A DNA stretch of 64,000 bases, taken from the NCBI RefSeq assembly GCF_054482525.1, contig NZ_CM137006.1. One strand, written 5' to 3'. Position numbers and translations under genes: made by a program. Below are positions 1 to 9,718 of the stretch, in pieces (positions within the stretch are counted from its first letter, which is position 1; the number at the start of each line of letters is the position of its first letter). The notes under the pieces were generated by a model. It searched no databases. It saw only the letters and a list, made by a program, of their open reading frames with translations, and was not told the DNA's origin.

Positions 1-780
1 GCTGAACGCATGCAGGATGAGATTCTTCAGGAGCAAATCCTGATTGAAACCGAAGGCGAACGCATCGGGCAAATTAACGCCCTATCGGTCATTGAATTTC
101 CGGGTCATCCACGCGCTTTTGGCGAACCTTCTCGCATTAGCTGCGTTGTGCATATTGGCGATGGTGAATTCACCGACATCGAACGCAAAGCGGAGCTTGG
201 CGGCAATATCCATGCGAAAGGGATGATGATCATGCAGGCGTTCCTGATGTCGGAACTACAGCTTGAGCAACAGATCCCCTTCTCAGCATCGCTGACATTT
301 GAGCAGTCATACAGTGAAGTGGATGGCGATAGTGCCTCGATGGCTGAACTCTGCGCCCTGATAAGCGCCCTCGCCGATGTGCCGGTGAATCAGAGTATCG
401 CTATCACAGGTTCAGTCGATCAGTTCGGTCGCGCCCAGCCGGTCGGTGGTTTAAATGAGAAAATCGAAGGCTTCTTTGCTATTTGCCAGCAACGTGAGTT
501 AACGGGGAAACAAGGTGTCATTATCCCCACAGCTAACGTTCGCCATTTAAGTCTTCACAGTGAGCTGGTGAAAGCGGTAGAAGAAGGTAAATTCACCATC
601 TGGGCAGTAGACGATGTGACTGACGCACTGCCGTTATTATTAAATCTGGTGTGGGATGGCGAAGGCCAAACGACGCTGATGCAAACCATCCAGGAACGTA
701 TCGCGCAAGCATCGCAACAGGAAGGACGTCACCGTTTTCCATGGCCATTACGTTGGCTGAACTGGTTTATTCCGAACTGA
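1..780 (+). CDS. ycbZ: Lon-like protease YcbZ, C-terminal part (5' end outside window)
   Basis: ORF 10..780 is in frame from position 1; Lon proteolytic-domain-like sequence ([10 protein letters not shown] region); sits immediately upstream of fabA as in E. coli. Confidence 0.85.
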
Positions 781-791
781 TCGGACTTGTT
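775..791 (+). promoter_or_regulatory. FadR operator of the fabA promoter (AACTGATCGGACTTGTT)
   Basis: Sequence matches the FadR box known for fabA (recalled); lies about 60 nt upstream of the fabA ATG and overlaps the ycbZ stop codon. Confidence 0.7.
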
Positions 792-792
792 C

Positions 793-810
793 AGCGTACA
801 CGTGTTAGCT
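793..810 (+). promoter_or_regulatory. FabR operator of the fabA promoter (AGCGTACACGTGTTAGCT)
   Basis: Palindromic element directly downstream of the FadR box, followed by TATCCT as a likely -10; matches the described fabA FabR site (recalled). Confidence 0.6.
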
Positions 811-848
811 ATCCTGCGTGCTTCAATAAAATAAGGCTTACAGAGAAC

Positions 849-9475: not shown

Positions 9476-9718
9476 ATCGTCACTTTTACTCTAAGAGCCT
9501 ACCGCAGTAGGCGTAATTGTTGCAGTCAGTCTGGACATGGACAGCGCGGAGAAACCGGAGCGTACACAAGTACGTGAGGATTTCGAGCACTTCCCTGGGC
9601 CAAACTGACAAATAAAATAGCCTAATGGGACAGGCGCTAAGAAAATTGTTGCGCATTATAGCTAATAAGCGCGTCATGTCATAAAGTTGAGGGCTTATTT
9701 TCATTTGAGGACCGCACC

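Follow-up and report, generated by a model that had tools for sequence, protein, structure and literature searches.

The composite FadR and FabR operator of the Escherichia coli fabA promoter overlaps the end of ycbZ

Introduction

The site for the GntR-family activator FadR and the operator of the TetR-family repressor FabR at the fabA gene of Escherichia coli K-12 were reportedly described by Henry and Cronan, by Zhang, Marrakchi and Rock and by Feng and Cronan. In 2009, Feng and Cronan are also said to have traced the fabAup promoter to the loss of 4 bp from the gene that precedes fabA. At the E. coli fabA promoter, FabR is stated to be located over the −10 region and FadR over the −40 region (PMC3462791). 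Expression of a fabA-lacZ fusion falls 2 to 2.5-fold in a fadR mutant (PMC4259882), and the fabA probe used in electrophoretic mobility shift assays (EMSA) is bound by wild type FadR, the FadR box and the FabR palindrome being marked in the primer tables (PMC4259882, PMC4537474). Two transcription start sites (TSSs) of fabA were known earlier, of which S1 is activated by FadR and S2 is repressed by FabR. A third, S3, is acid-induced and located 203 bp upstream of the ATG, and the CpxR footprint for this acid-induced promoter extends from −287 to −255 relative to the ATG (PMC7083825).

The same combination of sites is present at other genes of unsaturated fatty acid synthesis. The composite of E. 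coli fabB, GGCTGATCGGACTTGTT-C-GGCGTACAAGTGTACGCT, has the same boxes in the same order and with the same 1-nt spacing, and 30 of its 36 positions are identical to the fabA composite. It is located in the divergent mnmC<->fabB intergenic region, and its TGA therefore does not terminate a gene. The fabB TSS was mapped 37 nt before the fabB ATG (PMC7083825), resulting in a leader of 37 nt at fabB versus a predicted leader of about 28 nt at fabA. Shewanella oneidensis belongs to a different order of bacteria, and its fabA composite (AGCTGATCGGAGTTGTT-T-AGCTTACACGTGTTCGCT) has the same architecture as the one of E. coli fabA; FadR binds to it, and in E. coli it is under the control of both FadR and FabR (PMC4537474). 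The fabAB genes of Pseudomonas aeruginosa resemble fabA in having, upstream of fabA, a site for a FabR-type repressor (DesT) together with an activator site, and in being co-transcribed from an unrelated upstream operon (PMC3462791). They differ in the reversed order of the sites, in the 30-bp activator element, in an activator that is not FadR and in the organization of fabA and fabB as an operon.

The gene upstream of fabA, ycbZ, is known for a ribosome stall close to its end. The ribosome pauses with Pro585 in its P site and Asn586 in its A site; this pause is among the strongest of E. coli, exceeds that of SecM in profiling, and has been validated in vitro, by cryo-EM and by tRNA-seq. The ycbZ 3′ UTR is not needed for stalling, and the authors noted that the stall residues are poorly conserved (Fujita et al., PMC8848927). 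Here we describe the ycbZ-fabA junction in an E. coli genome and compare it with these systems.

Results

The DNA analyzed is a 64,000-nt stretch of contig NZ_CM137006.1, referred to in full as the window. Matches to positions 500-1500 identified the E. coli chromosome as its source; such a match is present in 5,425 of 5,426 complete E. coli genomes, and strain PCN033 is 100% identical to the window over this region. Four of the 5,428 places matching the fabA region in E. coli genomes are located in records classed as plasmids. At the PCN033 locus the gene order is ompA, matP, ycbZ (+), fabA (+), rmf (−), pqiC and pqiB (RefSeq). The gene names ycbZ and fabA, originally assigned from the sequence, are thus the correct ones, since RefSeq annotates both genes, together with rmf, at this E. 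coli locus.

The 3′ part of ycbZ, encoding a Lon-family/AAA protein, occupies positions 1-780 (+ strand; ORF 10-780, RefSeq annotation of the identical PCN033 locus). The ycbZ coding sequence starts upstream of the window and ends with the stop codon TGA at 778-780. The fabA coding sequence (849-1367, + strand; ORF list and RefSeq) encodes the 172-aa 3-hydroxydecanoyl-ACP dehydratase/isomerase. A conserved TAAGGCTTA block containing the fabA Shine-Dalgarno sequence is found at 832-840 (+ strand), with a mean identity of 0.91 in 66 Enterobacterales sequences. Between the convergent genes fabA and rmf, hairpin prediction placed a bidirectional intrinsic terminator at 1395-1419, which consists of a perfect 11-bp stem with 7 GC pairs and is flanked by T-runs on both strands.

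The FadR activator box AACTGATCGGACTTGTT is located at 775-791 and the FabR repressor palindrome AGCGTACACGTGTTAGCT at 793-810, both on the + strand. The former was identified by string search, published probes and conservation, the latter by string search, a palindrome test and the literature, and the coordinates proposed earlier for both boxes were all reproduced by direct reading as well as by string search. Read from 5′ to 3′, the junction consists of TTCCG, AAC, TGA, TCGGACTTGTT, C, AGCGTACACGTGTTAGCT and ATCCTG. As had been predicted, the FadR site AACTGATCGGACTTGTT contains the ycbZ stop codon, with the TGA at 778-780 representing positions 4-6 of the 17-mer, and the FabR palindrome follows within 2 nt, the actual gap being a single nucleotide (C792). 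The original prediction had both operators overlapping the stop codon; this is true for the FadR box only, the FabR box beginning 13 nt past the stop.

The FadR box matches the consensus AACTGGTCCGACCTGTT in 14 of 17 positions. When up to three mismatches were allowed, it was the single match to this consensus in 64 kb, with 0.13 matches expected. The FabR pattern is matched at 793-810 with 0 mismatches, compared with 0.68 matches expected per window at up to three mismatches, and the box is an imperfect 18-bp palindrome that is self-complementary in 14 of 18 positions. A further FabR-like match with three mismatches, CACGTACTTGTGTACGCT, is found at 9559-9576 on the − strand and lies within this chance expectation.

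Such numbers also have to be read against the alternative that both motifs are chance resemblances with no regulatory role. At least one match to the FadR consensus arose in 12 of 100 shuffles, and a position weight matrix (PWM) built from five fad operators assigned the fabA box 11.5 bits, placing it only sixth in the 64-kb window. The matrix is too weak to discriminate, and the motif score alone is weak evidence for the FadR box. The decisive evidence for the boxes is their identity to published probes and their cross-species conservation. Positions 766-821 of the window (56 nt) are identical to the EMSA oligonucleotide "fabA-F"/"fabA_ec-BD-F", which is the gel-shift probe that binds FadR and in which both boxes are marked; the predicted sites therefore align with the published FadR and FabR sites. 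Moreover, 5,388 of 5,430 E. coli records contain the 36-bp composite without a single difference, the composite is strongly conserved in Enterobacterales, Vibrio and Pasteurellaceae, and it is also found at fabB. A chance origin is contradicted already by the published binding and genetics, and we regard it as practically inconceivable. Thus, positions 775-810 very probably constitute the composite operator of the main E. coli fabA promoter. Compared with the E. coli K-12 fabA promoter, the window is identical over the 56-nt probe, has the same gene neighbours and shows no substantive difference; it comes from another E. coli strain. The fabA composite promoter overlapping the end of ycbZ is real, was correctly interpreted and is already known.

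Every E. coli genome contains a second place similar to the 36-bp composite, which is presumably the composite of fabB. For the comparison between species, 80 loci from Enterobacterales, Pasteurellaceae and Vibrio were collected, using one genome per species and the 80 best FabA matches, a sample that is neither random nor phylogenetically corrected. Of the 79 usable loci, 78 have a ycbZ homologue as the gene immediately before fabA. Regional identities were taken from a MAFFT alignment of 66 Enterobacterales sequences and are given as mean identity to E. coli. They are 0.87 for the FadR box, 0.89 for the FabR box and 0.74 for the stretch from the −10 to the TSS, and drop to 0.63 for the last 60 nt of ycbZ coding sequence and to 0.42 for ycbZ third codon positions. 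Judged from this alignment, the two boxes appear as a clear phylogenetic footprint, and the composite appears to be the best-conserved non-coding block in the 66 sequences.

The mapped fabB TSS provides a reference for the promoter geometry. Counted from this TSS, the fabB FadR box is centred at −38 and the FabR box covers −28 to −11. Transferred to fabA, this geometry points to a candidate −35 hexamer TTGTTC at 787-792 (+ strand), which agrees with the consensus in 3 of 6 positions and is overlapped by the FadR box, and to a candidate −10 hexamer TATCCT at 810-815 (+ strand), separated from it by a 17-nt spacer. The fabA TSS would then be located near 821-822. This TSS is placed by analogy with fabB, and relative to it the FadR box would be centred near −40, in line with the fabB geometry. 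The candidate −10 hexamer abuts or overlaps the FabR box, and the published FabR position overlaps the −10. A sigma-70 scan at standard thresholds did not find a fabA promoter. The poor hexamers (TTGTTC-17-TATCCT) fit activator dependence as well as the empty scan; the empty scan in turn fits an activator-dependent promoter, yet it is no evidence for one.

According to the literature, matched to the window by sequence identity, a FadR dimer bound to the 17-bp box at about −40 would activate fabA transcription, and long-chain acyl-CoA would release FadR from this box. FabR is reported to bind to the adjacent 18-bp palindrome, between the −35 and the −10 and overlapping the −10, and to repress fabA. 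The two boxes are 1 bp apart and may act as one unit, because the same unit is found at fabB and at Shewanella fabA.

Conversion of the published coordinates (PMC7083825) places the CpxR footprint of the upstream acid-induced fabA promoter at 562-594 (+ strand), inside ycbZ. A GTAGA-N5-GTAAA repeat at 577-591 within this footprint fits the CpxR box. The TSS S3 (−203) corresponds to about position 646 and is likewise located inside the ycbZ coding sequence. A search for intrinsic terminators on the + strand between 500 and 849 detected none between ycbZ and fabA; the only strong terminator near fabA is the hairpin at 1395-1419, 3′ of the gene. RNA-seq data define a ycbZ-fabA operon with read-through into fabA (Conway et al., PMC4161252). 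Read-through, which the original prediction had put as a question, is therefore documented by the RNA-seq operon together with the missing terminator. Promoters within ycbZ and 5′ of it also contribute to the transcription of fabA in this way.

The list of open reading frames includes a 238-aa frame (651-1367) that starts with GTG, is in frame with fabA and crosses the promoter, as had been noticed earlier. Since the frame is open from the GTG at 651, it could be taken for a real, N-terminally extended FabA. The additional part (651-848, + strand; ORF list) overlaps ycbZ in another frame and spans the fabA promoter, RefSeq annotates fabA at 849-1367, and in tblastn searches most species match the 172-aa protein from residue 1 onwards. 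In addition, the open upstream frame is not conserved. A stretch of 75 or more open codons before the ATG, in the frame of fabA, is restricted to Escherichia, Citrobacter, Leclercia and Superficieibacter, and the other species have an in-frame stop 1-57 codons upstream of the fabA ATG, in all but one within 32 codons. We give an extended FabA virtually no chance of being real: the 238-aa ORF is an artefact of an accidentally open frame, and the warning that it would provide a misleading N-terminal extension was justified. For annotation this means that fabA should not be extended to the upstream GTG.

The overlap between stop codon and operator was followed across the species set. In 47 of 79 species the TGA of the TGATCsGA box is the ycbZ stop, which is then usually located 71-72 nt before the fabA ATG. 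This group comprises Enterobacteriaceae, Yersinia, Serratia, Rahnella, Rouxiella, Hafnia, Edwardsiella and Budvicia, and also two Pantoea, two Haemophilus and Vibrio penaeicida. The last YcbZ residue seen with an in-box stop is N, G, S or H. Nine of the 79 species keep the box and have the ycbZ stop 6-56 nt earlier (Photorhabdus, Morganella, Proteus, one Haemophilus and one Vibrio); in the Morganellaceae the box is kept and the stop is found 14-16 nt upstream (loci L053, L060, L063, L067-L069 and L071 of the species set). No strict box was found in 22 of the 79 species. Most Erwiniaceae have a TAA at the position of the in-box TGA, and their left half-site is degraded. The Erwiniaceae junctions in the set are loci L033, L039, L041, L054, L056, L058 and L066. 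In Pectobacteriaceae the ycbZ stop is located at about −94, and YcbZ is about 8 codons shorter (L029-L034, L048). The Pasteurellaceae loci L072-L080 contain a FadR-like plus FabR-like composite about 130-138 nt before the fabA start, a distance implying either that the leader is much longer or that the promoter is laid out differently. The ycbZ stop is again the box TGA in H. parahaemolyticus and H. paraphrohaemolyticus.

The CTGATC core is also present at fabB and at Shewanella fabA, and the A of the TGA is therefore a property of the operator and not of the stop codon. In the simplest interpretation, the TGA of the operator serves as the stop of ycbZ, and the operator fixes the last codon as NNC. 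Since fabB has the CTGATC core although no gene terminates there, the most likely origin of the overlap is an old and tightly packed junction of ycbZ and fabA, not a separate mechanism.

Many genera have another FadR-like palindrome in the ycbZ tail, AACTGGTTyAACCAG, which is located 15 bp upstream of the known FadR box and which we call box U. It contains the CTGGT-N3-ACCAG core of the fadB operator and encodes the YcbZ tail peptide NWFN(Q/H). Relative to the fabA ATG it is located at about −89 to −73, in L029, L031, L032, L034, L048 and about 21 other loci. In the 21 species with the peptide, AAC is used for 41 of its 42 Asn codons, versus 62 of 156 in the remainder of these genes (Fisher p about 8e-13, uncorrected for phylogeny). 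The central Phe codon is free, with 12 TTC and 9 TTT. In five Pectobacteriaceae box U is located 3′ of the stop and thus non-coding, and it is still kept there with a variable centre (CTGGTTGGGCCAG, CTGGTTGGTCCAG). This pattern suggests that box U is a DNA-level palindrome outside E. coli, possibly serving as a second or a replacement site for a FadR-family protein where the left half-site of the canonical box is degraded. In the E. coli window the corresponding sequence AACTGGTTTATTCCGAA (760-776, + strand) is half-degenerate and scores 4.6 bits with the PWM, which makes it a doubtful site in E. coli. Because of the degenerate right half, box U probably plays no role in this window.

The codons of the ribosome stall, Pro585 CCG (772-774) and Asn586 AAC (775-777), occupy positions 772-777 on the + strand (PMC8848927; codon positions). 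The Asn586 codon represents positions 1-3 of the FadR box, so that the stall sits on the start of the box, just before the stop codon. Four signals are thus superimposed in about 20 bp, namely the YcbZ arrest codons, the stop codon, the FadR box and the candidate −35 of fabA.

This superposition raises the question of whether the stall at Pro585/Asn586 modulates fabA expression from the read-through ycbZ-fabA mRNA. Such coupling could act in the manner of SecM on secA, through mRNA stability or through Rho-dependent termination. As in SecM-secA, two genes are co-transcribed and translation of the first stalls strongly close to the C-terminus of its product; this stall is experimentally validated and in profiling exceeds that of SecM, read-through transcripts exist, and the stalled ribosome would be located about 70 nt before the fabA ATG. 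It also speaks for this idea that fabA is not mentioned in the paper on the stall (PMC8848927) and that our literature search found no paper linking the ycbZ stall to fabA. Unlike SecM-secA, the ycbZ-fabA pair showed no structure that would sequester the RBS, conservation of its stall residues is poor, and an effect on fabA has not been reported. Folds of 745-875 (z = −0.85) and 790-875 (z = +0.62) were no better than those of shuffled sequences, giving no support for an mRNA structure that masks the fabA RBS or connects the stall region with it. Pro-Asn is found in only 13 of the 47 species with an in-box stop (others have SN, HN, RG, HG, QG etc.), whereas the operator and its spacing are conserved. 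Furthermore, the ycbZ 3′ UTR is dispensable for stalling, and transcription of the main fabA mRNAs begins 3′ of the stall site. Because the folds are no better than shuffles and Pro-Asn is restricted to 13 of 47 species, we consider an influence of the stall on fabA quite unlikely.

A 7-bp perfect inverted repeat (GCTGAAC/GTTCAGC, 756-762/789-795) brackets the stop codon and the FadR box. The fold containing it was no better than shuffles and no clear covariation was seen in the stacked sequences; the repeat was treated as chance. YcbZ protein is increased in a tgt mutant, which lacks queuosine (PMC9508795). Queuosine is a modification of tRNA-Asn, and accommodation of this tRNA at AAC (775-777) is the limiting step in the ycbZ stall; the link to the tgt effect may be coincidence.

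Discussion

The comparative results add detail to a known promoter and do not establish a new kind of system. Two leads emerge from them: a stall site coincides with an operator, and other Enterobacterales may have a second FadR site. A combined scenario, in which the stall would tune fabA expression from read-through transcripts and FadR control would pass to box U in Pectobacteriaceae and Erwiniaceae, where the canonical box is degraded, is improbable in our estimation. If it were true, tuning by the stall would link translation status to unsaturated fatty acid synthesis. The composite operator itself would dictate the last codon and the stop codon of ycbZ in many genera, which makes the ycbZ-fabA junction a clean case of regulatory DNA constraining a coding sequence.
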